Source of the DNA: Candidatus Nealsonbacteria bacterium
GTDB taxonomy: Bacteria; Patescibacteriota; Minisyncoccia; Minisyncoccales; JANBVM01
Assembly (NCBI GenBank): GCA_047456295.1
Contig: CP179887.1
Location: 303,159 to 367,158 of the forward strand
DNA length: 64,000 bases
Direction: 5' to 3'
The position numbers were made by a program, and so were the translations under genes. Numbering within the stretch: the stretch's first letter is position 1; each line of letters opens with the position of its first letter. Positions 26,818 to 46,615 of the stretch are shown here, in pieces. The notes beneath the pieces were generated by a model. That model ran no database searches. It saw nothing but the letters and a program-made list of their open reading frames with translations, and was not told where the DNA came from.

Positions 26818-26825
26818 AAGTATGT

Positions 26826-30360: not shown

Positions 30361-30366
30361 GTCATT

Positions 30367-31662
30367 TTATACAAGATATTGTACAGGACCTTGAGCAGCT
30401 ATTATCCTAGGTCTTGGTAAAGGAACAATAAATTTTCCTCCCTTAAGTAAATAATTTCTCTCTCGTTTTTTGAAAGCTTCAAGAAAATGCCAAGGCAACA
30501 CTAAAAAGTAGTCTGGGTTATTCTTCCTTGCCTCCTCCTCAGAAATAATCGGAATCAAAGTACCAATGGTCTTTTTGCCGTACTTTCGTGGGTCTCTTTC
30601 GGCAGCAGCAACAATCAAATCAGAGTTAAGATTAAAAAATTGCAAAAGTGTATTTCCTCTTGTTGAAGCTCCATAAACATAGACTTTTTTGTTTTTTTGC
30701 GTTTCGCTTTTAATAAAATCATTGATGGCATCTTTGATTTTATTTATTCGTAAGCCAAATTCATCATACACTTTTCGTTGATTAAGACCTATGTTCTTTT
30801 CATACTCCCTAACTCTTTTTAATCTTTCTTCTGCGCCCTCAAAAACTTTAAGGGATTTACACTCTGTATGTCTAATATATGCCCGGATACTTCCACCATT
30901 AACATCATTCAATAAAATATCAAATACTTCTAATCTGTATTTTTTCAAAAGATTTTCTAAAGCAAGTAGTGAATAATATTCAAGGTGTTCATGGACTATG
31001 TTATCAAAAGCATTTCGTTCTAACATCGAAACGAGATAATTCATCTGGATAATAAACAAACCATCTTTATCAAGCACTTTTACAATATCTTTAATAAATT
31101 CGTTCGGATCGTCTAAATCATAAAACATTGAAATAGCTGTAATAATTTTTACCTTTTGATTGCCAAACTCTTTTTTAAAGTTGTTTGTATTAAAATAATC
31201 ATTAAATATTTTTGTCGTACCAACCTGCGCATATTGTACTAAATCTTTTGCCGGATCAAATCCAACAAGTTTAAGTCTTTTGACTTTTCCTCTATAAAAA
31301 CGAAGCATAGTCCCGTCATTACAGCCGATATCAAGGACAATATCTCCAGTATATAAATCCCTTATTTGAACAGCCTTCTCAACAATATCAGCTAATTCGC
31401 TTTTCATTGTTTCATTAATCGCAGACCGGTACCAATATCCTTTTCTGTAGAGCAAATCTCGATCAACTGTATGTCTAAGCTGAAGCAAACCACACCCTCC
31501 TGAGTTTGCATTGCATAAAACAATATCAAGGGGTGCTTTTGAAACTCCAGTATTAGAGCTTTCAACAAAACAAGAAGGATAAATATTTCCTAAAGAAAGA
31601 ATAGGAATAAGATTTTTTGCACCACAGGCACAACAAGTATAAATAGTTTTTAGACCAGACAT
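30367..31662 (-). CDS. NDP-hexose C-methyltransferase-like enzyme (zinc-ribbon N-domain + MTase + C-methyltransferase C-domain, TylCIII-like)
   Basis: 431 aa. N-terminus CCACGAKNLIPILSLG (putative Zn site). Also VLDIGCNDGTMLRF and an architecture like sugar C3-methyltransferases. Confidence 0.65.
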   Translation of the reverse strand: MSGLKTIYTCCACGAKNLIPILSLGNIYPSCFVESSNTGVSKAPLDIVLCNANSGGCGLLQLRHTVDRDLLYRKGYWYRSAINETMKSELADIVEKAVQIRDLYTGDIVLDIGCNDGTMLRFYRGKVKRLKLVGFDPAKDLVQYAQVGTTKIFNDYFNTNNFKKEFGNQKVKIITAISMFYDLDDPNEFIKDIVKVLDKDGLFIIQMNYLVSMLERNAFDNIVHEHLEYYSLLALENLLKKYRLEVFDILLNDVNGGSIRAYIRHTECKSLKVFEGAEERLKRVREYEKNIGLNQRKVYDEFGLRINKIKDAINDFIKSETQKNKKVYVYGASTRGNTLLQFFNLNSDLIVAAAERDPRKYGKKTIGTLIPIISEEEARKNNPDYFLVLPWHFLEAFKKRERNYLLKGGKFIVPLPRPRIIAAQGPVQYLV

Positions 31663-31676
31663 AAATACATAATTAC

Positions 31677-32651
31677 TTATTGTTCATTTGCAAATTCTTT
31701 ATGTTCAAGATACCAACTAATAGTTTTCTCAAGACCCTGCTCAAAGTTCGTTTTTGCCTTAAAACCAAATTCTTTTTCTGCTCTCGTCGTATCTAATCTT
31801 CGTCTTGGTTGTCCATCTAGTTTAGATGTATCCCAATGAATTTCTCCTTTAAAATTCATTAATTTACAAATCAATTTTGTCAAATCTGTAATAGAAATTT
31901 CCATACCTGAACCAAGATTAATCGGTTCCATTTTATTATATTTTTCTGTGGCAAGTAAAATTCCCTCAGCAGCATCCTCAACATATAAAAACTCTCTTGT
32001 AGGATTGCCACTACCCCAAACTTCAATATAATCTCTACCTTCATCTTTAGTCTCAGCTATTTTTCTTATCAAGGCAGGTATAACATGAGAAGTTTTTAAA
32101 TTAAATTTGTCAAAAGGTCCATACATATTTACTGGCAAGAGATAAATTGCGTTAAATCCGTATTGCTGACGATAGGCTTGAGCTTGGACTAAAAGCATTT
32201 TTTTTGCTAAACCGTAAGGGGCATTTGTTTCTTCGGGATAGCCATTCCATAAATCTTCTTCTTTAAAAGGAACAGGGGTAAATTTTGGATAGGCACAGAT
32301 AGTCCCAATTGCTACAAATTTTTCAATACCTGTTTGACGAGCGGCCTCTATTAATTGAATACCCATTATGGCGTTGTCGTAAAACATCTCTCCTGGTATT
32401 TTTTGATTTAAACCAATACCACCGACTTTGGCTGCTAAATGTATAACTATATCTTGGCCAGCGACCGCTTTTTGGCAATTCTTCCATTTTCTTAAATCTA
32501 ATTGTTCAAAAGTGGGCAAAAATAGATTCTCTTTTGGAATTTTTCTTTTCTCTAATAAATTTCTAACCAGATGTTTACCTAAAAATCCCTGAGCGCCAGT
32601 AATTAAAATCTTCTTTTTAGTTAAATCAATCATAAATTGTTTGTTATTCAA
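31677..32651 (-). CDS. fcl: GDP-L-fucose synthase (GDP-4-keto-6-deoxy-D-mannose 3,5-epimerase/4-reductase)
   Basis: 324 aa. [39 protein letters not shown]. Overlaps gmd by 8 nt. Confidence 0.9.
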
Positions 32652-33735
32652 AGTGATTTTTTACTTCAAAACCCCCATTTTTCAAATGGGCATCTCTTTT
32701 TGCTTCCTCTAAATCTGAATGAACCATTTCTTTTACCAATTCTTCAAAACTGGTTTTTGGTCTCCAACCGAGTTTTTCTCTTGCTTTAGTTGAATCGCCT
32801 AATAGTGATTCCACTTCGGCTGGTCGAAAATATCTTGGGTCAATTTCTACTATTATTCTGCCTGTCTTCTTGTCTATTCCCTTTTCATTTAAACTTTCTC
32901 CTTGCCATTCTAAATCAATCCCTAGTTCTTCGAAGGCAAACTCGCAAAATTCTCTAACCGAGTGTTGCTGTCCGGTTGCTATTACATAATCATCAGGTTC
33001 TGGCTGTTGTAACATTAACCACATTGCCTCAACGCTATCTTTGCTGTGCCCCCAATCTCTTTTGGCATTAAGATTTCCTAAATACAATTTATCTTGCAGT
33101 CCTAAACTAATTCGGCTAGCTGCTCGGGTAATCTTCCGGGTGACAAAGGTTTCTCCTCGCCGTGAACTCTCGTGATTGAATAAAATGCCGTTGCAGGCAA
33201 AGATATTGTAGGCCTCACGATAATTAATAGTAATCCAATAAGCATACAACTTAGCTACTCCATAAGGACTTCTTGGATGAAAGGGAGTATTTTCGTTTTG
33301 AGGCGCTTCGCCTGGCTTGCCGGAAAACAACTCACTGGTTGAGGCCTGGTAAAATTTTGTTTTTTTCTCTAAACCAAGAATTCTAATGGCTTCTAATAAT
33401 CTTAAACATCCTAAAGCATCAGTATTTGCCGTATATTCCGGCATCTCAAAGGAAACTTTAACGTGCGACATAGCCGCCAAATTATAAATCTCGTCTGGTT
33501 GGATTTTTTGGATAATTCTCATCAAATTAGTAGCATCAGTCATATCACCATAATAAAGAATAAACCTTCTATTTTTTTCGTGAGGGTCTTGAAATAAATG
33601 GTCTATTCTTGCCGTATTAAAAGAAGAGGCGCGTCTTTTAATTCCATGGACCTCGTAACCTTTATTTAATAAAAACTCAGCCAGATACGAACCGTCTTGT
33701 CCCGAGACGCCAGAGATTAGTGCTTTTTTTGCCAT
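32644..33735 (-). CDS. gmd: GDP-mannose 4,6-dehydratase
   Basis: 363 aa. [72 protein letters not shown]. Confidence 0.95.
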
Positions 33736-33775
33736 ATATTTTGCTGATTTTTTATTTTGCTATATAATCAAGAAT

Positions 33776-35014
33776 ATGAAACTAAAACAAAAAATTAAAA
33801 GTTTATTGCTCTGGAGCCAAAAATACACTCAAACTGATATGGTTTATGTGGCCAAGGGAGGGTTTTGGTGGATTTTTGGTGAAATTGTGGTGGTTGGGAT
33901 TTCTTTTTTGACGATGATTGCTTTCAGTCACTGGGTACCAAAAGAGATTTTCGGTGCTTATCAGTATATTCTTTCTATAATAGGAACTTTAGCCATCTTT
34001 ACATTACCGGGAATAAATACTGCCTTAGTAAGAGCGGTGGCAAAAGGAAAAGAGGGAATGCTTTGGCTTTCAGCTAAAACAAGTTTTAAATGGTCTTTCA
34101 TTGGAGTGGCGGGTTGTCTGGCTATTTCTGGTTGGTATTTCTTACATCAAAATTTTATCTTAGGAAACTCTTTTTTAATTGCCAGTTTTCTCTTCCCAAT
34201 TCCCAGAATTTCTAATCTCCTTTTTAATTTCTGGCAAGGAAGAAAGAAGTTTGACATACAAGCTAAATATTCAATAATAATCAACATCTTAGAAGCTTTA
34301 GCTTTTATTCCAGTTCTTTTTTTAACTAACAACTTAATTTTAATTATCTTGGCTTATTTTATCTCAAGAAGTATATTCAGAGGTATCCTTTTTAAACTTA
34401 CTTTAAAAAAAGTAAAAAATCAAGAAAAAGATAAGGAAACTTTATCTTTTGGTAAGCATTTAACTTTGATGCAAAGCATTGCTCTTTTTGGAGGACAAAT
34501 AGATAAAGTTATTATTTGGCAGTTTTTGGGACCAATTCCGGTAGCAATATATTCTTTTGCCCAACTTTCACTTCTAAGAATCCAAGGATTAATTCCAATC
34601 GCTCCTCTGGCCTTGCCAAAGCTTAGTCAGAAGAATATTAAAGAAATAAAAAAAGGAATCTTTAAGAAATTTTCCAAACTCTTTTTAATCTCTGTGCCTC
34701 TTACTCTCTTTCTTGTCCTAATCGCTCCTCTAATTTATAAAATCTTGTTTCCTCAATATTTAGAATCTATTCCCTATTTCCAAGTTTTAGCCCTAACTTT
34801 AGCTTTAGCTCCTTTCTCGCTTCTGGGAACTTCTTTAGTGGCTGAAATGAAAAAAAAGGAACTTTACATCAGTTCAGTGGTAACCCCTGTTTTGCAAATT
34901 ATTTTATTTTTAACATTAATCCCTTTCTATGGAATCTGGGGCATAATCACTGCTATCTTAATTACTCAAGTTTGTGGAAGTGCCTTAACTTTTTATCTCT
35001 TCAAAAAGATTTAA
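33776..35014 (+). CDS. Oligosaccharide-unit flippase (Wzx-like, MOP superfamily)
   Basis: 412 aa, about 12 TM segments, sitting in a glycan locus. The sequence is typical of polysaccharide biosynthesis (Wzx) proteins, but the assignment rests on topology and context. Confidence 0.7.
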   Translation: MKLKQKIKSLLLWSQKYTQTDMVYVAKGGFWWIFGEIVVVGISFLTMIAFSHWVPKEIFGAYQYILSIIGTLAIFTLPGINTALVRAVAKGKEGMLWLSAKTSFKWSFIGVAGCLAISGWYFLHQNFILGNSFLIASFLFPIPRISNLLFNFWQGRKKFDIQAKYSIIINILEALAFIPVLFLTNNLILIILAYFISRSIFRGILFKLTLKKVKNQEKDKETLSFGKHLTLMQSIALFGGQIDKVIIWQFLGPIPVAIYSFAQLSLLRIQGLIPIAPLALPKLSQKNIKEIKKGIFKKFSKLFLISVPLTLFLVLIAPLIYKILFPQYLESIPYFQVLALTLALAPFSLLGTSLVAEMKKKELYISSVVTPVLQIILFLTLIPFYGIWGIITAILITQVCGSALTFYLFKKI

Positions 35015-35964
35015 CTTTTTATCTTTTTTTTAAACCAACTTATGGTTTCTTTAAGTCCTTTTTCTAAACTGTATTTCGGCTGCCAGTTGAGGGCTTTTTT
35101 TATTTTGGAAAAATCAAGACAGCTTCTCTTTTGTTCGCCTGATTTTATTGGACCATGAATTTCCTGACAATCAGAATTGGTCAATTCTTTAATTTTTCTG
35201 AAAATCTCATTGATGCTCGTTTCCTTAGCGATACCAATATTATAAATACCGCTTTTTTCTTTTTTTATAGCTGAAAGAGCTGCTTCAACTACATCATCAA
35301 CATAAACGAAATCTCTGGTCTGTTCTCCGTCACCATTAATTACAACTTTCTCATTTCTCAACATTTTATCACAAAAAATAGCTATTACTCCGGCTTCTCC
35401 TTTTGAATTTTGGCGAGGACCGTAAACATTTGAAAAACGCAAAGAAACATAATCTAAACCATAGGTTTTTTTATAAAAGTTGAGGTATTTTTCAATGGCA
35501 AGTTTTTCTATTCCGTAAGGCGATTCGGGATTTTCTAAATGATTTTCCGGTGTAGGAATGACATCTGTATCGCCGTAGATAGCGCCACCGCTTGACGCAA
35601 AAATTATCTTTGGAACCGCTGATTTATACTGATTCGGCTGATTTACGATGATAAAGTTTTGGAGGATGTTTAGAGAGCCGAGGATATTGATCTTGGCATC
35701 TTCGATTGGGTCTTTTACTGATTTTCTGATATCAATTTGGGCGGCAAAATGAAAAATTGTTTCTGGTTTTTCTTTTTTAAAAATCTGAGAAATTTTGGAA
35801 TCACAAATATCCAGCTCATAAAATTTAGCTTTAGGATTCAGGTTCTCTTTTTTGCCGGTAGATAAATTATCAATCACTATTACTTGATGGCCTTGCTCTA
35901 TTAATTTGTCTGTGAGGTGAGAGGCGATAAATCCAGCCCCTCCACTTACTAATATTTTAGACAT
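35011..35964 (-). CDS. NAD-dependent sugar epimerase/dehydratase (UDP-glucose 4-epimerase-like SDR)
   Basis: 317 aa. ILVSGGAGFIASHL, YGIEKLAIEKY (YxxxK). Confidence 0.85.
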   Translation of the reverse strand: MSKILVSGGAGFIASHLTDKLIEQGHQVIVIDNLSTGKKENLNPKAKFYELDICDSKISQIFKKEKPETIFHFAAQIDIRKSVKDPIEDAKINILGSLNILQNFIIVNQPNQYKSAVPKIIFASSGGAIYGDTDVIPTPENHLENPESPYGIEKLAIEKYLNFYKKTYGLDYVSLRFSNVYGPRQNSKGEAGVIAIFCDKMLRNEKVVINGDGEQTRDFVYVDDVVEAALSAIKKEKSGIYNIGIAKETSINEIFRKIKELTNSDCQEIHGPIKSGEQKRSCLDFSKIKKALNWQPKYSLEKGLKETISWFKKKIKS

Positions 35965-36000
35965 ATATATAATTAGTTATTACTGAATAGTTATTAATGA

Positions 36001-36705
36001 TTACTCCCAGGTTCTGATGGCTTTTTCATAGCGCTGCCATGTTCCACAATCTGTCCATTTCCCATTAAATTTAAATCCGGCTAACTCTCCCTTTTTAGCT
36101 AATTTAGGAAAAAGATTTGTTTCTATCATAGAAAACTTGGAGCCGGGATGATATTCAAAAATTTCCGGAGAAAGAAGATACAATCCCGAATTAATATATT
36201 TTGAAGGAGGATTTTTAGGTTTCTCTAAAAATTTCTGAACTATTCCATCTTTACAAATTACTACTCCGTAATCTTGAGGATTTGGCACCTTTACCAAGGC
36301 AATTGTTGCAAGGATTCCTTTCTTTTGGTGAAAATCTTTCATTTTCTTTAAATTAATTTTTTTCAGTTCATCTCCATTAGTAAGAAAAAACTCCTTCCCT
36401 AAAAGTTCTTTTTTTAAATAATAAAGGCCACCAAAAGTTCCTAATGGCTCACTTTCTTCAACTAATTTAATGTTATTTTTGGGATAATATCTTTTCTTCC
36501 ACCAGTCAAACTCTTCTTTAAATTCTTTATTTATCAATACAAAAATATCCTTTATTCCTTGTTCAGAAAAAAGCTCTACCAGATGATTTATAATCGGTTT
36601 CTTTTTTACTGGTAAAAGAGGTTTGGGGATTTCATAGGTTATAGGATAAAGCCTAGTCCCCTTTCCCCCAGCCAAAATCACTGCTTTAAGATTATTTTGG
36701 ATCAT
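36001..36705 (-). CDS. Sugar-1-phosphate nucleotidylyltransferase
   Basis: 234 aa. AVILAGGKGTRLYPITYEIPKPLLPV. Confidence 0.85.
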   Translation of the reverse strand: MIQNNLKAVILAGGKGTRLYPITYEIPKPLLPVKKKPIINHLVELFSEQGIKDIFVLINKEFKEEFDWWKKRYYPKNNIKLVEESEPLGTFGGLYYLKKELLGKEFFLTNGDELKKINLKKMKDFHQKKGILATIALVKVPNPQDYGVVICKDGIVQKFLEKPKNPPSKYINSGLYLLSPEIFEYHPGSKFSMIETNLFPKLAKKGELAGFKFNGKWTDCGTWQRYEKAIRTWE

Positions 36706-36759
36706 ATTTATGCTATGCTGTATAATATAATATAAGTTGCCAAAAAATCAAGATTTATT

Positions 36760-37887
36760 ATGTATTTTGTCCATCCTCAAATTAAATTAACAAAGCAGAC
36801 CCTGAAGTCGTTTCTTGGAAACTTCATTAAAGCGCCTGACCTAACTCTTATCAAAAAAGAGCTCTCTTTTAATTTCCCCGGAAAGCAACTGGTATTTACC
36901 GACATGGCAAGGTCTGCCTTTAAAATCGCTATTGAAAAATTGAATTTAAGAGATTCCAAGATTGTTTTGCCAGCCTATATTTGTGATATTTTCTATCCGA
37001 TTTTGAAAGAATATAATATAGAACCCATTTTTTTAGATATTGAATTAGACACTTTTCACATCAAAACAGGAGAAGATTTACAAAAAATTAAGACTAAAGC
37101 AAAAGCAATTCTTGTTTCCCACACCTATGGACTGCCCATTAAAAAAGAAAGAATAGAGCAAATCAAGAACCTGTTGCTAATTGAGGACTGCGCTCATGCC
37201 TTTGGAGCCACCGTAGGCAATTTAGGAGATGTTTCTTTTTTTAGCCTCTATAAACAATTCCCTATGTTCAGGGGAGGTTTGTTGGTTTGCCCTCAGAGTT
37301 GGGAAATCAACCTGCCAAAAACAAATTTCAGTTTCAGGGATTTTATTTCCTTTTTGAACTGTTTTCCTTTTTTTGCTTTTCTCTTTAAAACCTTTGGTCA
37401 AAAAATTGCCCCTAAATTTATTAAGGGAGAAAAAATACCAAAACCCGCTTCCTTAAATCCTGTTTCCTTGAACTTTTTTTCTCAATATTCAAGAGACTAT
37501 GACCTTACCTTAAAAAAAAGAAAAGAACTCGGTTTGTTTTTCCAAAAAGAGCTTAAAAAATTAGGCTTCCAAGTCCAAGAATCTGAAAATAATGTTTTTT
37601 GTTATTTATCAGCTTTAACTCCTAAAGAGCTCAAGGATAAAAGAGATAAACTGGTAAGGGAATTAAAAAAGAAAAGGGTCTTTTGTACTCGAATCTGGCA
37701 CACCCCTATAGTTCTCAATCCAGAAGTCCAAGAAGAATACAATCTAAATTTAGACAAATTTCCAAATACGGTTGAGGTAGCTAAAAGAATAATTAATTTT
37801 CCTCTTCAAACCTGGTACTCAAAAAAGAATATCAAAAAGATAATTTTAAGCGTGAAAAAGGTTCTTATTGAGCTAAAAGCTGGTTGA
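36760..37887 (+). CDS. DegT/DnrJ/EryC1/StrS-family sugar aminotransferase (divergent)
   Basis: 375 aa. IEDCAHAFGA and FSLYKQFPMFRGG (candidate PLP-lysine). The 3' end overlaps the convergent gene by 23 nt. Confidence 0.7.
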   Translation: MYFVHPQIKLTKQTLKSFLGNFIKAPDLTLIKKELSFNFPGKQLVFTDMARSAFKIAIEKLNLRDSKIVLPAYICDIFYPILKEYNIEPIFLDIELDTFHIKTGEDLQKIKTKAKAILVSHTYGLPIKKERIEQIKNLLLIEDCAHAFGATVGNLGDVSFFSLYKQFPMFRGGLLVCPQSWEINLPKTNFSFRDFISFLNCFPFFAFLFKTFGQKIAPKFIKGEKIPKPASLNPVSLNFFSQYSRDYDLTLKKRKELGLFFQKELKKLGFQVQESENNVFCYLSALTPKELKDKRDKLVRELKKKRVFCTRIWHTPIVLNPEVQEEYNLNLDKFPNTVEVAKRIINFPLQTWYSKKNIKKIILSVKKVLIELKAG

Positions 37888-39607
37888 TTTTGGTTCTTGT
37901 CATCAAACCGACAAAACCTGTTCCCCCTTCTAATTCCAAAGGAGCCAAAATTTCATCAGCATATTTTTCTTGAAAACGAACAACTGCAGTTCTGGTCAAA
38001 GAAAGAAAATTTCCAGTTACCAAGCCCTCGGGATAAATCTCTAGACCTTGAGATTTTAAAAACTGCTGAAGGCAGTAGACCCTATCATCGTTTCTTAAAC
38101 CGTAGAAAAGATTCTCTTCAAATTTTTGACAAGAAACAGGGGCTAATTCCTCTTCATCTGCAGCTATAATTTGGGCAAGTTGAGCTTTAAGTCTGTTAAG
38201 TAATTCTTCAATTTCAGAAATTTTAGCCAAAAGCTCTTGCTTTGACATCTCCAAAATTGGTTTTTCCAAATTAGGGTTTTCTTTCTCTTCAACGACTATA
38301 GTCGAGGCTTCCCAGAAAAACGGAAAAGCCTGTTCAGAATCTGAAAACCCCGAAGTCTTACTTTGAATTGAAGGAATAATGGTTACAGAACTAACTTCTG
38401 TTCCAAATTCAGGAACTAAAACTTCCCCTCTTTGATATTCATCAAGTTGGAAAAAGTCAAGTAAGTGTTCACCCCAAAAATCTCGAACAATATAAGGGGC
38501 TTTAAATAAATTTCCTGGATTACCAATAAACTCAATCTTTAAAGTCCCTTTGCCGCCAATAAATTTAAACCAGTTACCCGACCAATTTTTAGTACTTTGA
38601 CTAACTCCTAAAGTGCTCTTACCTTTAAGTGGCAAGAAATTAATTGAAGGGGTAACCCTTAAATTTTTTAAGCTTTCATTTTTATAACAATACTTTTCTC
38701 CTAAAGAGCAGTCATTAGCCAAAACTGCAATAGTCCAATCAGTGAAAATTTGAGAGAAATCAGTATCTGAGTCATTTTTTTCTAAAGATTCATTTAAGCT
38801 TTTAATCCCCACTTTTTCTGATTTTAAGGAATCAGCTAAAACTTCTACTCCATACTGCTCAACCAAATACTGAATAAAAAGATTTAGCGCTCCGTAATCT
38901 GCGGGCTTGTTCTGCCATTCAGTGATAGAATCAGAAGGATTGGAAATAAAAGATTGAACTCTTTTTTGAAGATTGCTTCCCTCATATTCATCATCATAAC
39001 CTAGTAGCGTTGGTGCGTATTCAGCCCGAGCTTCGTTTAACCAGACCTCCTCTTCTACTCCGTAATTTTTCTCTTTTTGATTAAAGGTAATCAAATGAAC
39101 AAATTCGTGAGCTAAGAAACTTTTAGCTAAAGTATCTGTAATGTAATCAGCATTTAGATAAAGCATTTCTCTTTCATTTGACTCTGGATTCTGTATCCTT
39201 GGGTACTCATCCCCATTATTAAAATATCCACGAGCTCCTTCTATCATTGGATGAATTAAAATCGTAATATACGAAGTTTTATCAATCCCCGGCTTCCATT
39301 CTGAGCCAAAAGTCGAAGTTAAAGTTGGATAAATTTTATAATAAAATTCGTAATCCAAGGTTTGAAGGGCTTGTTTTACCTTTTGCTTTTCTTGATAACC
39401 TAAAACTTCCCACCATTGCTCATCAATATAAAAATATATTCTTTTACCTACTCTCTGCAAAGTAGCTGAGGCTTTTTCTCTTCCGGATAAATCATAAGTA
39501 GAGTTAATGAAAAAATTAGTTCTTTCTCCCAAAGAAATAGCCGAAACAAAAACCGGTAAAGAAAGAAAAATTATCCCAAGAAAAATTATCTTAAAACTTT
39601 TTGTCAT
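37865..39607 (-). CDS. Secreted HExxH (zinc-metallopeptidase-like) protein with C-terminal coiled-coil + PG-binding domain
   Basis: Signal/anchor MTKSFKIIFLGIIFLSLPVFVSA (start at 39607; the track start at 39682 adds 25 unlikely aa). HEFVHLI motif. C-terminus CLQQFL...TRTAVVRFQEKYADEIL...GTGFVGLMTRTKINQLL is PG_binding_1-like. Confidence 0.7.
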   Translation of the reverse strand: MTKSFKIIFLGIIFLSLPVFVSAISLGERTNFFINSTYDLSGREKASATLQRVGKRIYFYIDEQWWEVLGYQEKQKVKQALQTLDYEFYYKIYPTLTSTFGSEWKPGIDKTSYITILIHPMIEGARGYFNNGDEYPRIQNPESNEREMLYLNADYITDTLAKSFLAHEFVHLITFNQKEKNYGVEEEVWLNEARAEYAPTLLGYDDEYEGSNLQKRVQSFISNPSDSITEWQNKPADYGALNLFIQYLVEQYGVEVLADSLKSEKVGIKSLNESLEKNDSDTDFSQIFTDWTIAVLANDCSLGEKYCYKNESLKNLRVTPSINFLPLKGKSTLGVSQSTKNWSGNWFKFIGGKGTLKIEFIGNPGNLFKAPYIVRDFWGEHLLDFFQLDEYQRGEVLVPEFGTEVSSVTIIPSIQSKTSGFSDSEQAFPFFWEASTIVVEEKENPNLEKPILEMSKQELLAKISEIEELLNRLKAQLAQIIAADEEELAPVSCQKFEENLFYGLRNDDRVYCLQQFLKSQGLEIYPEGLVTGNFLSLTRTAVVRFQEKYADEILAPLELEGGTGFVGLMTRTKINQLLAQ

Positions 39608-39632
39608 CAATAATATTTTACCAAATTTCTTT

Positions 39633-39665
39633 CCAAAACAAAAGACCCCGTTCCGGAGAACGAGG
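39633..39665 (-). terminator. Intrinsic terminator after the 1162-aa surface protein gene
   Basis: Minus sense: CCTCGTTC-TCCG-GAACGGGG followed by TCTTTTGTTTTGG. Confidence 0.6.
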
Positions 39666-39738
39666 CCCTTTGGTGCCCACAAGGAAAGGCATTTAGGATC
39701 TCACTACCTCACAAAACGTGAGGGTCTGTTTCAGAGAA

Positions 39739-42700
39739 TTAGTTAGACAAAGTACCACCAAATACTTCACTGATAGTTAGCTTACAATCACCGCCATTAG
39801 AGGTTGTGCCATCGCTGTAGTAAAGGTCGGCACTCAAATTATTAATTTCAGTCTGGAGGTAATCACCTTCACCGTCAGTTTCAACGGTAGCAATGATAAC
39901 TATGGTCACCGTGCCGTCAACTTCATTAGCCTCACCATCTAATGTGGTCATATCAATAGTAGTAACACCATCGGAAAGAGCAACTCCATCAGTTTTATTA
40001 GATGAATCACCTTCAATGTAAGCCTGGATACTGGTACTAGTAACAGCTGCAGCACCACCCGTAGTCACCGTTATTGTTGTTGTAGCTAAAACAGCTTTCG
40101 TATCAGTATTTTCAGTATCTCTATTGGCACCGCTATCAATCGTCAGAGTATATTTGCCAATGATTTTACCAACACCACCAGTTAAAGTACCATTTGCCAT
40201 GGCATTCTCAATGTGAGTGATAGCAGCACCTAACACTGTACCTGTTCTACTTACATCAGTAGAAGTAGACCACTCACCAAAAGCTAAGGTACCGTCGACA
40301 TCTACTACCATGGTGATATCTTCTCCAGAATTTACACCTTCAGCTACCACACCTAGCGTAGTGGGGAAACTATACTGAATTGTCTTACCACTTATCGCAG
40401 TAGCGGTAGGATCACCGGCAACATTAATACCGTTTACATCAGCTACAACAAATAAGGAAGTGGCTTCATTGGCAGCAAACTCTAAGTCAAGATTGGTGAA
40501 ATTAACATCTCCGTTTGACGATACTCCTTTGGTTTCAACAACTGTTCCATTTGCCTCAACCAAGGAAACAGAGGCAATGGTGGTATTGGTTGCGTCACCA
40601 CCATCATTGTCTAATCTTAATGTCGTGACTTTAACAGGTTCATCCTTAGTAGTGAAGACTAATTCTCCAAGATATCTACCAGTTGGACCAGAACTACCAG
40701 CAACGATATACATATCTTTATTGGCTTTTACATCGGTGATCTTTAACTCAACCTTCAAATCACCTGCTGTCGCTAGGGTTACCGTTCTTGATTCTGTAGA
40801 TGTACTGATAATGTTTTCAACAATAAGCTCGTTATCAATATCTCTAGAGATTACGTCAGCAGTTGAATCAGTGATACCTAAAGCAAAAGTACCATCTCCA
40901 TTTAAGGAAGAAGCAAAAGTAGCCTTCAAAACTAAGCTAACTGTTTTACCAGCTGAAATGACATTGTTGGTATCTAAAGAAGAGAAGATAATTGAACCCA
41001 TCCCGGAATCAACGTATCCTGCTTCTGCAATCCTGTTAGATCTTGTTTTCATTAAATCCCCATCAAGATAGAGATCTAATTTAGTGATATTAGTGTCAGA
41101 GAACAAGGTTGAACTACTATTACTATCTGTGGAAACCTCGGAAATGGCAACTGTTTTTAGGGTAACCAGAGAAGAATCCCCAGCCTCTAACGTGGCCTGG
41201 TAGATTATTTCATCTACAGCTCCCCCGACAACTGAGACATCAGTCAATGTTACAGTAGTAACATCGAGAGAAGAGATCTCAACAGTTGATATACCAGAGG
41301 TGATTTGACTCGGGAGAATGTCGGCAATTGATTCACCAGAAACATCACCGGTTATGGTGAATGCTCCATCCTCAAGAACGACTTTTAGAGTGTCGGTGTT
41401 GCTAATTGAAGAAGTTAAGTCTAACCTAATCTCAAAGGTTCTAGTTACGCCCTTTACCAAACTAATTTCTTCTGTCATAGACAAGTAACCTTCCGTGTCG
41501 CTCTCCCAAGTTTCGGCAAGGTCGTAAATAGCGCCGGTCTCAACATCCCTCATTTCTATACTACCAGTCGTAATATCAGTTGATGACGCTATTCCTGTAC
41601 CTTGAATTTCAAACTGATGAGTTCCGTTACCAGTAATAGATTCAATGGTTGCATTCTCAGCATTGGAGGTCATTTTTAAGGTGGCTATGACTACGTTCTT
41701 AGTATCGGGCCTGACATCCTGATTTGGAGTACCAGTGATTGACGACTTGTCAAAATCAATGGTGAAATCACCGACAGCTAAAGTAACATTCTGGGCTTCA
41801 CCAGTAATATCTAGATTTGTGGTATCAACAGCGGCTCTAAAACCAGTATTCTTACAAATCATCGTAACGTCTGTCTCGTCTTTTATGTACAATTTAATGG
41901 TGTCTCCAGCTGAGCCGGTGCCTATGTCTCCCCTAACCTCACAAGTAACTGTGTCGCTTTTCTCAATCAAAATATTGGAGATACTAAAGGCAGCATATCT
42001 ATCCTCTAATTCGGTGGTGGCAATTTCCTCTCCATCGCAGATTAGTCTCAAGTTTGAGGCCAAAGAATCATCATTTGTTCCACCGTTTCTGAATCTAATG
42101 GCTGAAAATAGTAAATCTTCAGCTGCTCCAACATCAATATCAAAATCAGCCAGCAGGACATCATCTTCGCCAAAGGGAACGCTTGGCCCCAGGTCAGCTG
42201 CCGCAGTTATTGTAGCTGTCCCAACGGTGGCACCCAAAACATTCATTGGATTACCATTAATTGGGAAAGTGCCATTAACCGCCGAAGCATTAGAGAGAAT
42301 ATCTGAACTATCTGAAATCCCTAAATAAAAGACATGGCCTGCTCCAGCGTAAGCTGCGGTAGCCTTTACCGTTAAAATTTGGAGAACTCCTGCCTCAACA
42401 ACCAGCGGGGTCGGGAAATTAAAGATAGCGCTCCCATCAGAACTAATATTCTTGGTAGAGCTAATCCTTATTCCGTCCTCATCAAAAATCGCCACCGAAT
42501 CTATATTAGTATAGGTACCTATTCCCCCGGCAGTTATCTCAATAGAATTAATGTTTACATCTTCACCAGAAACCAATGTAAATTTAAGAAATTCCACTGA
42601 AGAACCATAGGGAACACCGGTAGAAGCCGGAGTGTCAGCAGCTAAAGAAACAGAAAGGCCTGTTGCGGGAATTACGGGACCAGGAACTACACCAGAAGAG

Positions 42701-43227
42701 AGAATCGCATTCAGTTTAGTTCTGGTTGTTGTACCAACAAAACCAGTACCAGTAGTTAAGCCGTAAGTAGCAAGAATTTCACTGGCGTATTTTTCCTGGA
42801 ATTTAATCACAGCTGCTTTGGTTATAGGACCAAAGTAGTTGGTTTCATTACCAGAAGAACCTACACCGCTTGCAGCTAATTGGGTGTCGGCAGATGAATT
42901 CAAGACGATTTGCAAGCATTTTACATCATCACCCGACATTGCCTGCTGAAGGTTTCTATCAAAGGAAGTGATAGTACAACCAGTAACGGCTGTTCCCTGA
43001 AGTGCAGCTAGTTGAGTCTGTAAGGCATTTATTGAGGCCAATAGGGTAGCTATCTGTGCTTGAAGCTCTTCTACTGTTATAGCAAAAGCAGGTGTTGCAA
43101 TCGAAATCGAAGCCCAAACAGTCAAAACAGTAATAATCGCTATAGTCTTTTTCTTTGTTATTAAATTCATTTTTTTCTTTAAGTTTTTGTTTGTTAATTT
43201 TTTATTTATTTCCATCGCGTCGACCAA
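39739..43227 (-). CDS. Giant cell-surface (S-layer/adhesin-like) protein with N-terminal signal anchor, coiled-coil + PG-binding domain, and ~950 aa of Thr/Ser/Gly/Val/Ala-rich beta-type repeats
   Basis: 1162 aa. TM/signal IAIITVLTVWASISIATPAFA. LQAQIATLLASINALQTQLAALQG. DVKCLQIVL...ITKAAVIKFQEKYASEIL...GTGFVGTTTRTKLNAIL. Visibly more G+C-rich than the flanks because of composition. Confidence 0.8.
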   Translation of the reverse strand: MVDAMEINKKLTNKNLKKKMNLITKKKTIAIITVLTVWASISIATPAFAITVEELQAQIATLLASINALQTQLAALQGTAVTGCTITSFDRNLQQAMSGDDVKCLQIVLNSSADTQLAASGVGSSGNETNYFGPITKAAVIKFQEKYASEILATYGLTTGTGFVGTTTRTKLNAILSSGVVPGPVIPATGLSVSLAADTPASTGVPYGSSVEFLKFTLVSGEDVNINSIEITAGGIGTYTNIDSVAIFDEDGIRISSTKNISSDGSAIFNFPTPLVVEAGVLQILTVKATAAYAGAGHVFYLGISDSSDILSNASAVNGTFPINGNPMNVLGATVGTATITAAADLGPSVPFGEDDVLLADFDIDVGAAEDLLFSAIRFRNGGTNDDSLASNLRLICDGEEIATTELEDRYAAFSISNILIEKSDTVTCEVRGDIGTGSAGDTIKLYIKDETDVTMICKNTGFRAAVDTTNLDITGEAQNVTLAVGDFTIDFDKSSITGTPNQDVRPDTKNVVIATLKMTSNAENATIESITGNGTHQFEIQGTGIASSTDITTGSIEMRDVETGAIYDLAETWESDTEGYLSMTEEISLVKGVTRTFEIRLDLTSSISNTDTLKVVLEDGAFTITGDVSGESIADILPSQITSGISTVEISSLDVTTVTLTDVSVVGGAVDEIIYQATLEAGDSSLVTLKTVAISEVSTDSNSSSTLFSDTNITKLDLYLDGDLMKTRSNRIAEAGYVDSGMGSIIFSSLDTNNVISAGKTVSLVLKATFASSLNGDGTFALGITDSTADVISRDIDNELIVENIISTSTESRTVTLATAGDLKVELKITDVKANKDMYIVAGSSGPTGRYLGELVFTTKDEPVKVTTLRLDNDGGDATNTTIASVSLVEANGTVVETKGVSSNGDVNFTNLDLEFAANEATSLFVVADVNGINVAGDPTATAISGKTIQYSFPTTLGVVAEGVNSGEDITMVVDVDGTLAFGEWSTSTDVSRTGTVLGAAITHIENAMANGTLTGGVGKIIGKYTLTIDSGANRDTENTDTKAVLATTTITVTTGGAAAVTSTSIQAYIEGDSSNKTDGVALSDGVTTIDMTTLDGEANEVDGTVTIVIIATVETDGEGDYLQTEINNLSADLYYSDGTTSNGGDCKLTISEVFGGTLSN

Positions 43228-43408
43228 TTTACCCTGTTAGACATTAGATAGTAGAAATATCACAAGCTCAAATAATTGAGCTCTATCTAACCAAGGTTGC
43301 TCGCGACCTTACGTATTAGCCACGAGTGCGACTTTTAATTTTCTAATTTTAAATTTTAGCAAATTGTAAAGAAAATACCTGTTGGAAAAGTATCAATTCT
43401 CTCCATAT

Positions 43409-44155
43409 TTATTGACTTAACAAAATCCTCTCTAGAGCCTCAGAATAATTTCCATTTTCAAAATCTTGTTTTGCTTGTTCTAAAATCTCCTCACCTTCTT
43501 CAGTGAAAGTGGTCTTTTCCATGTCTTTAATCAGCAATTCCGCCACTACTTTAACAGGATTTAATTTTTCATCAATTTCCAATCCTGCTATTCCATATAA
43601 CGTCCCTAATATTTCCTTGTTTTTATCTAATTTTTGGGTTTCTTCAGCTATCCCTTTTATTACCAACGAATCAGAGGTAGTAGCTGCCATCTTTGTCAAG
43701 CTTTTAACTGCTTCAAAAACGCTTGCCTGATATTCTTTTAGAGCTGGTGCTAATTTCCTCACTTCATTATTCTGGGCAATCTGGTTTAATTCCTCCAGTC
43801 TCTTGTTGACCAACTCTAAATTCAACCTGGGTCTTTCTTGTTCAGAAGACAAGATTATCTGGCTCCTTTCTGTTATTTTTTTTAAATAATACAATGATTC
43901 ACCAGGCAAAGCACCCTGGGAAAACTCAAAAAAGCCCAACAAAAGTAAAACCAAAAACAAACCAGCATAGGCTGGCCTGAAAAAAGGAAATAACACTGCT
44001 CTTTTTTCCTCTCCTAAAATCTGGGTTTTAGTCAGCAAAACCCAGTCTTTTCTGGGTTTAATCTTTCTTAATTCTTTTATTTGTTTGATTAGTTTGGTTT
44101 CAGTCATAAAACAGCCCTTTTTTAGGCTTATCTTTATATATGACGAGTGAGACAA
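43409..44155 (-). CDS. Single-pass membrane protein, putative anti-sigma factor (DUF5667-like ectodomain)
   Basis: 248 aa. TM FFRPAYAGLFLVLLLLGFF, followed by LYYLKKITERSQIIL. Lies immediately downstream of the ECF sigma gene (8-nt gap). A start at 44107 (MTETK) is also possible. Confidence 0.55.
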   Translation of the reverse strand: MSHSSYIKISLKKGCFMTETKLIKQIKELRKIKPRKDWVLLTKTQILGEEKRAVLFPFFRPAYAGLFLVLLLLGFFEFSQGALPGESLYYLKKITERSQIILSSEQERPRLNLELVNKRLEELNQIAQNNEVRKLAPALKEYQASVFEAVKSLTKMAATTSDSLVIKGIAEETQKLDKNKEILGTLYGIAGLEIDEKLNPVKVVAELLIKDMEKTTFTEEGEEILEQAKQDFENGNYSEALERILLSQ

Positions 44156-44163
44156 GCTTTTTA

Positions 44164-44679
44164 TTACACCTCTTTTATTTTGCTTTTTAGGGCTTTTAAA
44201 GCCCGGTGAAGCAGAACACGGGTAGCTTCCTCTGTCCTGCCTAAAAGCTCAGCTGTCTCGGGAATAGATAGGTCATCTAAATAGTGCCAGATAATGACAT
44301 TTTGATAATCTTCCTTTAAATCAGATAGGGTTTTTTTAATATTCTGGATATCTGAATTCAATTCAGCTTGCTTTTCCAAATCATGTCTTGGATCAATAAT
44401 AAGAGGATTATCAACAGAAATAATGTGAATCTTGCCTTTCTGCCTGTAATAATCAATAACTAAATTCCTGGCGGTTTTATATAAAAATGCCTGAATATTT
44501 TCAATTTCCTCACCCTTTTTCTTAAAAACCGCCCAGGTTCTTGAAAAAGCTTCAGAAGTCAAATCTTCTGCTGTTTCTTGAGAATCCACCTTTAACACAA
44601 CAAATCTATAGATTTTATCTATATATTTATCGTAGATTTTACTAAACAGTTCTCGTGGTTTTTGCATAGGAAATTTCAA
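44164..44679 (-). CDS. ECF-type RNA polymerase sigma factor (sigma-70 regions 2 and 4)
   Basis: 171 aa. AEDLTSEAFSRTWAVF and FLYKTARNLVIDYYR are region 2. LSIPETAELLGRTEEATRVLLHRALKALK is region 4. Confidence 0.88.
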   Translation of the reverse strand: MKFPMQKPRELFSKIYDKYIDKIYRFVVLKVDSQETAEDLTSEAFSRTWAVFKKKGEEIENIQAFLYKTARNLVIDYYRQKGKIHIISVDNPLIIDPRHDLEKQAELNSDIQNIKKTLSDLKEDYQNVIIWHYLDDLSIPETAELLGRTEEATRVLLHRALKALKSKIKEV

Positions 44680-44748
44680 AATTTACTCTAAAAAAGGATC
44701 AAAGGGTTAGGACATATGTATTGTATATAGTCTCAAATCTAATCTGTC

Positions 44749-45471
44749 CTACCCTTGTCCTATCATTAAGGCTTGTGTCCTATCTTTAATTGTGTAAAAA
44801 GTGTTATTCTTCTCCCCCATCCTCTCAACCAAACCTTGTTTTAACAAATCTCTAAAATCTCTCCTCAGGGTTCTTTTGCTCACATCTGAGAGAATCTCCT
44901 TTATCTCCCAGACCTGCCCCCTTCCTTTTTCTTCTAAGAGCTTTAATATCTTTTTCTGCCGCTCAGAAACTACTAGTTTTTCCTGTTTTTTAAAACCTGA
45001 AACTGGTGCAGATTCATGCTCTGTTTTTTTATCTTGCTTCTCTGGTTTTCTATCCTTTTCTTTTCTCTCAATTTTTATCAAATCTTCTTTTATTTTACTA
45101 TACTCTTCTTGAAGGCTCAATAAATCAAAAGGTTTCACCCAGTTTTGGGCTTTTGCCACATTTAAAAAACCGTCAAGAATATCAATTATTTTAGCAGAAT
45201 TTCTGACAAGTGTAAATTTGGTCTGATAATGGGTTTCTTGAGAAAGAGAAATAAGGTTGGCCAAAACCTCATCAGACAACTCCCTCATTTTATATCTTAA
45301 GGGTTCTTTTTTAGGGAAAAGTAAGGTCAATCGATAGAGGTTATTTGTAACTTGAATCAGATAATTTTTATCCAAATTATTTTCATCCATAATTAGCTGT
45401 AAGAAAACTATACCAAAAATATAAAAAGGGGTCAAAGCTTTTGCTGCCGTAGAACACATAGAGTTTTCCAC
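44749..45471 (-). CDS. Transcriptional regulator with C-terminal DeoR-type wHTH
   Basis: 240 aa. RQKKILKLLEEKGRGQVWEIKEILSDVSKRTLRRDFRDLLKQGLVERMG. The N-terminal helical domain resembles four-helix-bundle proteins. The start is more likely at the internal Met (45390). Confidence 0.65.
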   Translation of the reverse strand: MENSMCSTAAKALTPFYIFGIVFLQLIMDENNLDKNYLIQVTNNLYRLTLLFPKKEPLRYKMRELSDEVLANLISLSQETHYQTKFTLVRNSAKIIDILDGFLNVAKAQNWVKPFDLLSLQEEYSKIKEDLIKIERKEKDRKPEKQDKKTEHESAPVSGFKKQEKLVVSERQKKILKLLEEKGRGQVWEIKEILSDVSKRTLRRDFRDLLKQGLVERMGEKNNTFYTIKDRTQALMIGQG

Positions 45472-45499
45472 AGTTTTAAAGTTGTTGTGTTTTCAATCA

Positions 45500-45523
45500 T
45501 TGGACAGGCTTAGCCTGTCCAAA
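45500..45523. repeat. 24-nt palindromic element TTGGACAGGCTTAGCCTGTCCAAA (copy 1, intergenic)
   Basis: 11-bp arms around a single central base. An exact reverse-complement copy lies at 48704-48728. Confidence 0.9.
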
Positions 45524-45556
45524 CTCAAACTATCGAGAACGTTCTGATATTTTAAG

Positions 45557-45609
45557 TTGAGTTTTCCACAATTGCATTTTGTTTTAAGTATCGTAAAATT
45601 AAAAAAATG
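45557..45609 (+). repeat. Degenerate duplicate of the promoter/leader of the 46987 gene
   Basis: GAGTTTTCCACAATTGCATTTTGTTTT..GTAAAATTAAAAAAATG aligns with 46929-46989, including an identical 17-mer GTAAAATTAAAAAAATG. Here the ATG opens only an 8-codon ORF. Confidence 0.6.
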
Positions 45610-45626
45610 GTGCTTATCGCACCATT
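45598..45626 (-). terminator. Intrinsic terminator after the DUF4177-like micro-gene
   Basis: Minus sense: AATGGTGC-gataa-GCACCATT followed by T7. Confidence 0.55.
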
Positions 45627-45657
45627 TTACTAAATAGCTAACTTTTTCTCTTTCTGG

Positions 45658-45822
45658 TTAGTTTTTCTTTCTTTTGAAATATGAGTAATGACCATCAATA
45701 CATCCTGCGCTTCCGTACGGACTAACGGCTACCAATTCCCATCCTTTAAATCCAAGCGCATTCATCTTTTCTTCGGTTGAATCCCTTACTATTTTATACT
45801 CAAACTGCTCGCCATCTGGCAC
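45658..45822 (-). CDS. DUF4177-like small protein (54 aa)
   Basis: Hand translation. AGGAGG lies 8 nt before GTG at 45822: VPDGEQFEYKIVRDSTEEKMNALGFKGWELVAVSPYGSAGCIDGHYSYFKRKKN*. The YEYK..(x)n..LNxLGxxGWELV pattern recalls DUF4177. Below the ORF-track cut-off. Confidence 0.6.
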   Translation of the reverse strand: MPDGEQFEYKIVRDSTEEKMNALGFKGWELVAVSPYGSAGCIDGHYSYFKRKKN

Positions 45823-46273
45823 GCCTATCGCCTCCTTTTTAATTTACTAATTCTGTCTAAACCATTTTTCAGTTTTTGTCAAAGATTTGTATGAGATGAG
45901 TACATAGGTAACACTTTAGCTGTTTTCTGATAGTAAAAATAGTGTCAACTCTGATTTTTTCGATTTTGTATAAAATAGTTTCAACCCTTTTTTTATACTG
46001 TCTCGTTTTAGCTTAAAAAGCCCTGACCGAGACGTGTTATTTGAAACCCTCAAAACCCTCTAAGTTTCCCCTTAAAACACATGTTCTAGACCGACTACGG
46101 GAGCCGAGTTGTTCAATGCGAACTTGTTTTTAGGAGAGAAAATAGGAAAAAACAGGTTTGACACCACTTTACACAAGTCAATTTGCTATTGACAATACTC
46201 CGTAAAAGAAACAAAATGAAAATGAAACTTATTTTTATTAGTTTTTTAGAAAAGCCTAAAAGGTTTTAAAAAG

Positions 46274-46615
46274 ATGGTTAAAAAGCTTGAAGAATTAATT
46301 AAATATCAGAGCCAACTTCCTGATAAACTTAAGGTTCAAATCACAAAATCTGACGATTGGGGCTATGCAGTTAAGATTTTGAATCTTCCGGGATGTTTCA
46401 CTCAGGTAAAAAATGCAGGAGAATTATTTATTATGGTAAACGATGCTGTTTACACTTATTTTGATATTCCTGAGGGTATTATTTCTTCAATGCCTCGTTA
46501 TTTTCCTATTGAAAGAATAAGAAAAGAGCTACAAAAATGGGAAAAATCTATTCCAACCAACCTCTTAGGAAGGCCTATTGTATTTACTCATTCAGGTGTT
46601 GGTGTTAACTCATAA
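46274..46615 (+). CDS. hicB: HicB-like antitoxin (UPF0150 fold)
   Basis: 113 aa. GYAVKILNLPGCFTQVKNAGELFIMVNDAVYTYFDIPE matches the HicB N-domain pattern (..VPDLPGCxSQGxTxEEAxxNxxEAI..). Confidence 0.6.
   Translation: MVKKLEELIKYQSQLPDKLKVQITKSDDWGYAVKILNLPGCFTQVKNAGELFIMVNDAVYTYFDIPEGIISSMPRYFPIERIRKELQKWEKSIPTNLLGRPIVFTHSGVGVNS

Follow-up and report, generated by a model that had tools for sequence, protein, structure and literature searches.

The window analysed here, a 64-kb stretch of a 689-kb contig from a Candidatus Nealsonbacteria metagenome-assembled genome, carries on its minus strand five genes, termed A to E, that encode a regulator with a C-terminal winged helix-turn-helix (HTH), an extracytoplasmic-function (ECF) sigma factor, a single-pass DUF5667 membrane protein, a secreted giant protein and a secreted HExxH protein, respectively (Table 1). 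All positions are given in window numbering, and the GC content of the genome is low (~30-40%). The five-gene order, i.e., regulator, ECF sigma factor, DUF5667 protein, gap, giant protein and HExxH protein, had been proposed in an initial annotation made from the DNA letters and is confirmed here, with the start codons of A, B, C and E derived from conservation identical to those called by NCBI (exact-sequence look-up). ACKKMR_01970 matches E, and ACKKMR_01975 matches D, at 100% identity. Two details of that annotation needed adjustment. The length of 1162 aa given for D is only that of the maximal open reading frame (ORF) starting at TTG; the NCBI call is 1158 aa, and the ATG at 43170, which is conserved in relatives (MNLITKKK...AFA/I, the slash marking the cleavage site), gives 1143 aa. 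Likewise, the 8-nt gap between B and C exists only if C starts at an upstream TTG, whereas a start at the conserved ATG leaves 56 nt. The two intergenic features that had been described are both present: the D-E gap contains a hairpin followed by a U-tract (CTCCGGAACGGGG then TCTTTTGTTT), and the C-D gap is structured, with a minimum free energy (MFE) of -38.8 kcal/mol (z = -3.1; none of 200 shuffles as stable). No clear Shine-Dalgarno sequence precedes the start of D (43170) or that of E (39607).

Table 1. Coordinates of the genes and other features of the locus, in window numbering
Feature	Position	Strand	Description
A	44749-45390	minus	213 aa, regulator with C-terminal winged HTH
B	44164-44667	minus	167 aa, ECF-type sigma factor
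C	43409-44107	minus	232 aa, single-pass DUF5667 membrane protein
D	39739-43170	minus	1143 aa (start conserved in relatives), secreted giant protein
E	37865-39607	minus	580 aa, secreted HExxH protein
Operator-like TAGGACA array	44708-44782	minus	in front of the sigma gene
Candidate leader RNA of D	43206-43337	minus	MFE fold and covariance model
-10-like elements TGCTAAAAT, TAGAAAAT	43338-43361	minus	immediately upstream of the leader
Cassette copy 1	42691-43080	minus	D N-terminus
Cassette copy 2	37868-38272	minus	E C-terminus
Terminator-like hairpin and U-tract	39646-39658	minus	D-E gap, consensus scan

Related loci (cited below as L001, L002 and so on) were collected in two independent ways, starting from E in species genomes and from C in metagenomes. 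A lies directly upstream of B in all 28 loci with room to score, and wherever the sequence extends far enough, B is followed by C and C by a protein with an N-terminal copy of the cassette described below, in agreement with the earlier view that the regulator, sigma and DUF5667 genes are linked to D. Of the 31 loci in which at least ~10 kb of sequence upstream of E is available, 16 have E after D. In the remaining 15, which include many from Staskawiczbacteria, no sigma, DUF5667 or D gene lies within 10 kb of E, and one of these genomes has an intact A-B-C-D core ~35 kb from E. Because E adjoins D in about half of the loci, A-B-C-D is the conserved unit; E often lies next to this core but is dispensable.

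D is built of a signal peptide (residues 1-30, AFA/I), the cassette (residues 31-160) and a string of ~8 β-sandwich, Ig-like domains (residues 172-1143), as seen in an AlphaFold2 (AF2) model with a predicted local distance difference test (pLDDT) score of 82; Foldseek matches this model to generic multi-Ig adhesins (PrgB, SdrD and integrin legs). Like E, D is exported via a cleavable Sec signal peptide. Its composition (pI 4.05; T 13.6%, S 9.4%, G 9.4%, A 9.1% and C 0.5%; T, S, G and A together 41%) is typical of S-layer proteins. A signal peptide, an acidic pI, scarce cysteine and an anchor are present; its body gives only generic Ig-like matches. D also evolves fast: its homologues are 27-44% identical where E homologues are 60-70% identical, and on one contig, for instance, the D homologue P0159 is 32% identical compared with 61% for the E homologue P0085. 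In Ca. Yanofskyibacterium, the same four genes lie on one strand (PMX_810_sub_00353-00350; supplement of PMC10936435), and its metatranscriptome gives expression values of 10.4 for the HTH_DeoR gene (00353), 7.6 for the ECF sigma gene (00352), 12.5 for the DUF5667 gene (00351) and 16.7 for the gene of a signal-peptide protein with a peptidoglycan-binding domain (PGBD), the D counterpart (00350), which is among the most highly expressed genes (PMC10936435). Cryo-electron microscopy (cryo-EM) of Ca. Nealsonbacteria reveals an apparent S-layer, and the genome in that study encodes three peptidoglycan-binding proteins (10.1101/2022.04.20.488981). Owing to its composition, its fast divergence, the expression of its counterpart and this S-layer, we read D as the major coat protein; that D is an abundant surface protein, as the initial annotation held, is plausible from the first three of these.

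The N-terminal part of D recurs in the C-terminal part of E. BLASTP aligns D residues 42-178 with E residues 471-605 (E-value 4e-20, 37% identity). This similarity, far beyond chance, bears out the earlier claim that the two proteins share a cassette. The cassette spans ~130 aa and comprises a 25-residue heptad coiled-coil helix, a conserved Cys pair and a PG_binding_1 three-helix bundle. The heptad pattern is readable in the hydrophobic residues at D positions 36, 40, 43, 47, 50, 54 and 57, the AF2 models place helices at residues 33-57, 81-90, 115-132 and 147-159 of D and at residues 456-483, 508-519, 536-553 and 568-579 of E, and C493 and C512 of the E copy are invariant in 38 homologues. 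The PG_binding_1 domain expected in both copies is recognized by Pfam in D (28.1 bits; cut-off 23), and the E copy scores 22.7 bits, marginally below the cut-off; by sequence, the D cassette thus belongs to PG_binding_1 and the E copy is borderline but homologous to that of D, and many E homologues are already annotated with PF01471. By tblastn, no third copy was found in the window: a weak match at 18759-19025 (E-value 0.001) crosses the stop codon of a TPR/O-antigen-ligase-like ORF and was, for that reason, treated as chance.

Beyond the window, a cassette profile built from the two sequences and searched against 1.84 billion cluster representatives matched 14,547 proteins at E-values of 1e-3 or below, 6,346 at 1e-10 or below and 426 at 1e-30 or below. 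Among the top 150 matches, the full cassette lies either at residues ~22-160 (in proteins of 200-1650 aa) or at the very C-terminal end (in proteins of 134-1458 aa). The passengers in sampled carriers include fn3/Pur_ac_phosph_N, Big_7, GLUG with Laminin_G_3 and Big_5, β-helix/NosD, CarboxypepD_reg, CHB_HEX_C_1 and Peptidase_M23 domains, and some E-family peptidases of ~750 aa bear the cassette at both termini (L015 4374-6619, L023 3923-6169, L032 10028-12321 and L039 2083-4345). Given so many carriers, its use at either terminus and the unrelated passenger domains, the reading of the cassette as a general portable surface-display anchor in this group, put forward at first from two copies, is well supported at the level of sequence and domain architecture. 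From its Pfam family, the cassette would be expected to bind peptidoglycan. Like PG_binding_1 (PF01471) domains of cell-wall enzymes, it matches the Pfam model, forms a three-helix bundle and sits at the N- or C-terminus of extracellular proteins; unlike them, it is a fixed unit of ~130 aa with a preceding heptad helix and a Cys pair, and it displays non-enzymatic passengers. In one relative, a second giant protein of 1134 aa with an N-terminal cassette is encoded directly after E (L002 11777-15181), with no copy of the leader RNA described below in front of it.

E has a signal peptide (residues 1-23), an M30-like catalytic domain (residues ~28-315), a β-sandwich that Foldseek matches to PPC and collagen-binding-type sandwiches (residues 320-437) and the C-terminal cassette (residues 446-580). 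Across 38 homologues with 57-86% identity, five residues do not vary: H167, E168 and H171 of the HExxH motif, Y238, and E192 of the WLNE motif, whose Glu is placed as in M1/MA gluzincins. The AF2 model (pLDDT 84) matches lugdulysin (7bb8) in Foldseek with an E-value of 1.7e-15 and a TM score of 0.69 on the target. A profile of the E family also finds 7bb8 among the Protein Data Bank (PDB) sequences (E-value 5.7e-13), whereas the single E sequence finds no match there. In the alignment with lugdulysin, LAHEfvH corresponds to LAHEYQH and WLNEA to WLNEA, and the invariant Tyr aligns with the Tyr of lugdulysin NYSLSY, i.e., Y315, the residue mutated in 7bb9 (the count being good within one residue). 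The third zinc ligand and the peptidase fold, which the initial annotation had named as the points on which its peptidase assignment would stand or fall, are therefore both found, with E192 invariant and the modelled fold lugdulysin-like. Curated family models do not reach E: Pfam Peptidase_M30 gives no hit at E-values up to 0.1, Peptidase_MA_2 scores 17 bits (cut-off 32) and NCBIfam MXAN_6640_HExxH scores 29 bits (cut-off 140), and E is on this account taken as a distant M30 relative outside the curated family. Like the M30 enzymes hyicolysin and lugdulysin, E combines, by sequence and model, the fold, the HExxH motif, the Glu ligand and the Tyr; unlike them, it is only ~20% identical and adds the PPC-like sandwich and the wall anchor. 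The family is large and conserved: it has more than 2,200 proteins, and the species genomes that encode them number at least 476, from Nealson-, Staskawicz- and Wildermuthbacteria as well as other Paceibacterota. A -10-like element, TGGTAAAAT, follows the D-E terminator and sits just 9 nt before the E start codon, a hint that the E mRNA is leaderless or nearly so.

The initial annotation also suggested that E processes D. Cwp84 of Clostridioides difficile, a cysteine protease, cleaves the S-layer precursor SlpA, and the two proteins carry the same CWB2 anchor and are encoded by neighbouring genes. E and D resemble this pair in sharing an anchor and in lying side by side; they differ in that E is an M30-like metallopeptidase and that the E-D linkage holds in only about half of the genomes. 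Since E lies in a transcription unit separated from D by a terminator, is missing near D in about half of the genomes and is far more conserved than its proposed substrate, the suggestion is not borne out, and processing of D by E is speculation.

The same data allow another view of the two secreted proteins, which we regard as possible but tentative. D may be mainly a host-attachment adhesin and E a nutritional or predatory protease acting on the host (archaeal sheath or S-layer) or on environmental proteins; their genes would then be neighbours as parts of one surface-display island rather than as enzyme and substrate. The Foldseek matches of D are Gram-positive adhesins, a role in host attachment has been proposed for the highly expressed PGBD proteins by the authors of the metatranscriptome study (PMC10936435), and the fast divergence of D would suit adaptation to host range. 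For E, the closest structure is a secreted staphylococcal protease, its high conservation and frequent separation from D suit an independent role, and the anchor it uses bears many other passenger domains. The coat reading of D is favoured instead by the extreme expression of the counterpart, by the acidic, Thr/Ser-rich composition, by a plan with a single anchor and a chain of β-domains as in SbsC and by the apparent S-layer seen in cryo-EM. SbsC is described as nine beads-on-a-string domains (PMC13635256). Like the S-layer proteins of Bacilli (SbsC, SbsB and Sap), D combines a Sec signal, one N-terminal wall-binding domain and, in its case, ~8 β-sandwich domains, and like these and the SLH/CWB2 proteins it is acidic, rich in Thr, Ser and Ala and poor in Cys, with an anchor that is re-used on other surface proteins. 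D differs from them in that its anchor is a coiled coil plus PG_binding_1 rather than an SLH, CWB2 or secondary-cell-wall-polymer (SCWP)-binding domain, and it shows neither detectable sequence similarity nor a specific fold hit to S-layer proteins. Because the methanogens known as hosts of Nealsonbacteria and Yanofskyibacterium lack murein, the peptidoglycan-binding end must sit on the bacterium's own wall, which suits a coat and an adhesin alike.

The three remaining genes encode a compact regulatory set. A matches Pfam HTH_DeoR with 34.3 bits at residues 144-190 of 213 and contains no other domain, its N-terminal domain being uncharacterised; the DeoRC sugar-phosphate sensor domain is lacking, and the DeoR equivalog models score 13-27 bits against cut-offs of 250-450. 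The label 'DeoR-type' given initially is therefore a misnomer for A: a winged helix matches, but it is C-terminal and comes without the DeoR sensor domain. A has a σ70-like promoter, TTGACC-17-TATAGT, at 45435-45407. Within its 167 aa, B contains Sigma70_r2 (40.5 bits) and Sigma70_r4_2 (46.8 bits), and it scores 83.6 bits with the ECF model TIGR02937 (cut-off 42.9), which by sequence places it among the ECF (group 4) σ70 factors. No named sigma subfamily reaches its NCBIfam cut-off; the nearest is the BldN type, TIGR02952, with 112.9 bits (cut-off 206). C has one transmembrane (TM) segment at residues ~45-62, preceded by a conserved, presumably cytoplasmic N-terminus of ~40 aa (MTExELIxKIxELRQIKPRKDW, seen in 34 homologues) and followed by a presumably extracytoplasmic DUF5667 domain at residues 65-164 (Pfam, 40 bits; cut-off 27). 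A search of Pfam at E-values up to 10 found no anti-sigma domain of the ASD type in C, whose ~40 residues before the TM segment compare with the ~80-aa four-helix cytoplasmic domain of class I anti-sigma factors; the term DUF5667 was not found in the literature searched. The single-pass topology and the position directly downstream of the sigma gene hold in all loci, and C is by position a putative anti-sigma factor, the reading given earlier, or a putative sensor.

The sigma gene is preceded by an array of three direct TAGGACA copies (44776-82, 44756-62 and 44745-51) and one inverted copy (44708-14); these make up half of the eight matches to the word that the window contains. When the A-B intergenic zones of L001-L102 were compared, the word occurred at 15.3 per kb in this zone versus 0.13 per kb elsewhere in the related loci (120-fold), many of which have perfect palindromes there, such as GTAGGACATATGTCCTAC, with lineage variants of the repeat including GTATGACA (L064) and GCGGACA (L033 and L075). 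The array resembles the operator of a dimeric HTH protein, probably and most simply A, which may bind it. No such array is seen upstream of D or E, and the region upstream of B consists of repeats and palindromes with no ECF-type motif (AAC-type -35, CGT-type -10). In several relatives other than the window, a second palindrome, TAGGACA-N14-TGTCCTA, falls within the 3' end of the sigma gene, immediately before the DUF5667 gene (L086 5836-5863, L087 5853-5880, L088 5824-5851, L092 673-700, L098 3482-3509 and L101 1423-1450). It may mark a separate regulated promoter for C, which would agree with the C mRNA exceeding the sigma mRNA in the published data.

The structured segment between C and D is predicted to form an RNA in which a closing stem P1 (GUCGC/GCGAU) surrounds a hairpin P2 (CUCGUGGC-UAAUACGUAAG-GUCGCGAG) and a variable hairpin P3; the loop UAAUACGUAAG of P2 is conserved across related spacers, and the unpaired junction ends in GGUCGA directly 5' of the P1 3' strand. 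The same element is present at L002 6190-6299, L014 7249-7348, L090 1222-1286 and ~25 other loci. A covariance model, R1, built from 12 sequences scores 68.3 bits on the window (E-value 5e-15), and in 1.2 Mb of searched sequence its strong hits, one per scoring locus, all fall in the gap between the DUF5667 and giant genes, with no hit elsewhere. In an alignment of 26 sequences, 95.8% of the cells are paired, compared with 20-62% when the partners are slid, and six pairs change on both sides, a number reached in none of 500 shuffles; in P2, eight sequences have compensatory C-G to U-A changes. As the alignment is model-fitted and the sequences are related, these figures are supportive rather than decisive. 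Independent support comes from divergent loci outside the R1 training set, in which the P1 strands are GUCGUUA/UAACGAC, AUCGUUGUC/GGCAACGAU, GAUCGC/GCGAUU and CUGUUAU/AUAACAG. P1 still closes the MFE fold there and leaves GGUCGA unpaired in four of five cases, and this core is kept despite the different stems in L065, L069, L075, L102 and L103. No match to the leader was obtained among the 4,227 covariance models of Rfam, either at gathering thresholds or at E-values up to 10. In some lineages, a small ORF of ~74 aa with a coiled-coil-like product (...DERLERIEIKLENVVYHNEFE...) lies between C and the leader (L103 6460-6684, L012, L013, L075 and L097).

When the alignment is anchored on the 5' end of the RNA, a conserved T.AAA.T appears ~7 nt before P1 (GUCGCG), and several loci have an extended -10, TGnTAAAAT or TGTTATAAT, at that place. 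By their conservation, the -10-like elements immediately upstream of the leader are probably the promoter of D. A housekeeping promoter of its own, with P1 near the mRNA 5' end, fits a stabilising leader of a very abundant transcript; slpA and cry mRNAs are likewise highly expressed and have a long structured leader. Two other promoter assignments were rejected. The motif GGTCGACGCGAC as an ECF -10 has no conserved -35 at a fixed distance, and the spacing of a TTGAGA-N17-TAATAC promoter inside the element breaks in L033 and L007, which have an inserted hairpin; the latter was also discarded because the P1/P2 covariation needs both strands within the RNA.

The initial annotation placed D, and E with it, under envelope-stress control: the ECF sigma factor, freed from the DUF5667 anti-sigma, would directly transcribe D and E, and E would trim D on the wall. 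We consider this unlikely. B, C and D are adjacent in every scorable locus although D diverges to ~30% identity, and since the leader in several loci begins ~10 nt past the C stop codon, read-through from the sigma operon into D is physically possible; co-localisation of E and D by their common anchor would also suit it, as would the frequent adjacency of their genes. The nearest NCBIfam subfamily of B is a further point in favour, BldN being a sigma factor dedicated to surface-sheath proteins, which in Streptomyces controls, with the anti-sigma RsbN, the chaplin and rodlin genes (PMC6101532). B and C are like BldN and RsbN in that an ECF sigma factor stands beside a single-pass protein with no recognisable anti-sigma domain in association with abundant surface proteins, self-assembling ones in the case of BldN; they are unlike them in that B stays below the BldN cut-off, that C is unrelated to RsbN and that the promoter analysis gives no support to direct control of D. 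In that analysis, a crude one based on k-mers and the anchored alignment, no motif common to the sigma-upstream and D-upstream regions emerged beyond the AT-rich background, and k-mer sharing over 28 loci was no better than in a reversed-sequence control, so the shared motif predicted from ECF autoregulation was not found. No ECF-like -35/-10 is conserved upstream of the leader, whereas the -10-like TAAAAT is. Furthermore, the D counterpart of Ca. Yanofskyibacterium lies ~9 units above the sigma gene on the published scale (~500-fold if the scale is log2) and stays high where sigma reads fall to zero (PMC10936435). These findings argue against direct ECF control of D, and E has its own terminator and -10-like element. 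Weaker still, and very unlikely, is the idea that the C-D gap acts as DNA, with repeated palindromic GTCGCGAC transcription-factor sites and no RNA structure: GTCGCGAC is itself palindromic and the element contains three GTCGCGA-like words in direct orientation, yet the distant P1 strands of the divergent loci (GUCGUUA/UAACGAC, AUCGUUGUC/GGCAACGAU, CUGUUAU/AUAACAG and GUCGUG/CACGAC) are non-palindromic and still mutually complementary at spacings of ~10 to ~135 nt, and the compensatory changes in P2 also speak for RNA.

Taken together, we think it probable, with considerable room for doubt, that A-B-C-leader-D forms the core of a 'major surface protein' locus that is conserved in Nealsonbacteria and in related Paceibacteria of the candidate phyla radiation (CPR). 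In such a locus, the heptad helix of the cassette would oligomerise and the PG_binding_1 bundle would grip the cell's own peptidoglycan non-covalently, while the fast-evolving string of Ig-like domains of D would project outward as an S-layer-like or sheath coat; E, as an M30-like zinc endopeptidase, would be held in the same wall zone. D would be transcribed from its own strong housekeeping-type promoter into an mRNA that starts with the multi-stem leader and has P1 near its 5' end, for mRNA stabilisation or translation control. A may control the sigma gene through the TAGGACA array, and B and C would make up a sigma/membrane-sensor pair that reports the envelope state. The A-B-C module is certainly coupled to D by conserved gene order, but D appears to have its own promoter and leader.

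Several points weigh against this proposal. Foldseek gives no S-layer protein match for D, and because its matches are generic Ig-like ones, 'adhesin' is equally compatible with the fold. The PG_binding_1 score of the E copy falls just under the Pfam cut-off, and C has too few cytoplasmic residues to accommodate a canonical anti-sigma domain. The covariation of the leader is modest within a closely related set whose alignment was fitted to the model; the promoter call is one of sequence conservation, and the conserved AAAAUUGAGA could belong to the RNA instead. Peptidoglycan binding, oligomerisation, lattice formation and proteolysis are all putative.

A stronger version of the proposal would make A-B-C-leader-D a dedicated surface-coat homeostasis circuit, in which the leader represents a new class of cis-regulatory RNA through which the sigma/DUF5667/HTH module or unassembled D sets the coat level. 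This extension seems doubtful to us at present; if it were true, the cassette would be the phylum's counterpart of the SLH/CWB2 display systems. The individual parts of the locus are of known kinds. To judge from the literature searched, no description exists of their combination, of how it is conserved across a CPR class, of the cassette as a generally used module, of the operator array or, above all, of the leader RNA.

CPR bacteria, or Patescibacteria, are a huge and almost uncultured group that live attached to other cells, and their envelope has been seen by cryo-EM but is molecularly undefined. The locus offers a candidate for the main coat protein, an anchor that occurs in thousands of protein families and a putative wall-tethered protease, together with a compact regulatory module that has a putative operator and a new candidate structured RNA. 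The cassette could serve as a search key for the surface proteome of any Paceibacteria genome.

On the other side of E, a long run of genes at ~21000-37900 contains flippase-like, NAD-epimerase-like and nucleotidyltransferase-like motifs, judged from ORF translations alone, and the neighbours of E in two relatives (L001 12526-21731 and L002 15246-21755) carry Pfam DegT, epimerase, UDP-glucose dehydrogenase and glycosyltransferase domains. Envelope-polysaccharide genes thus flank the locus in the relatives and, by the translated ORFs, probably in the window as well, which suggests a larger envelope-biogenesis neighbourhood around E that possibly glycosylates D or makes a wall polymer.

Upstream of A, GC skew and gene orientation change sign near 46 kb (~45400-46300), and two DnaA-box-like words, TTTTCCACA, lie at 45464 and 45562. 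A replication origin at this place is just a possibility, because the 13 DnaA boxes of the window are no significant excess over the 8.5 expected. Far from the locus, on the plus strand at 3054-3514, the window also encodes a class A bacterial RNase P RNA that scores 103.8 bits, slightly above the gathering score of 100.

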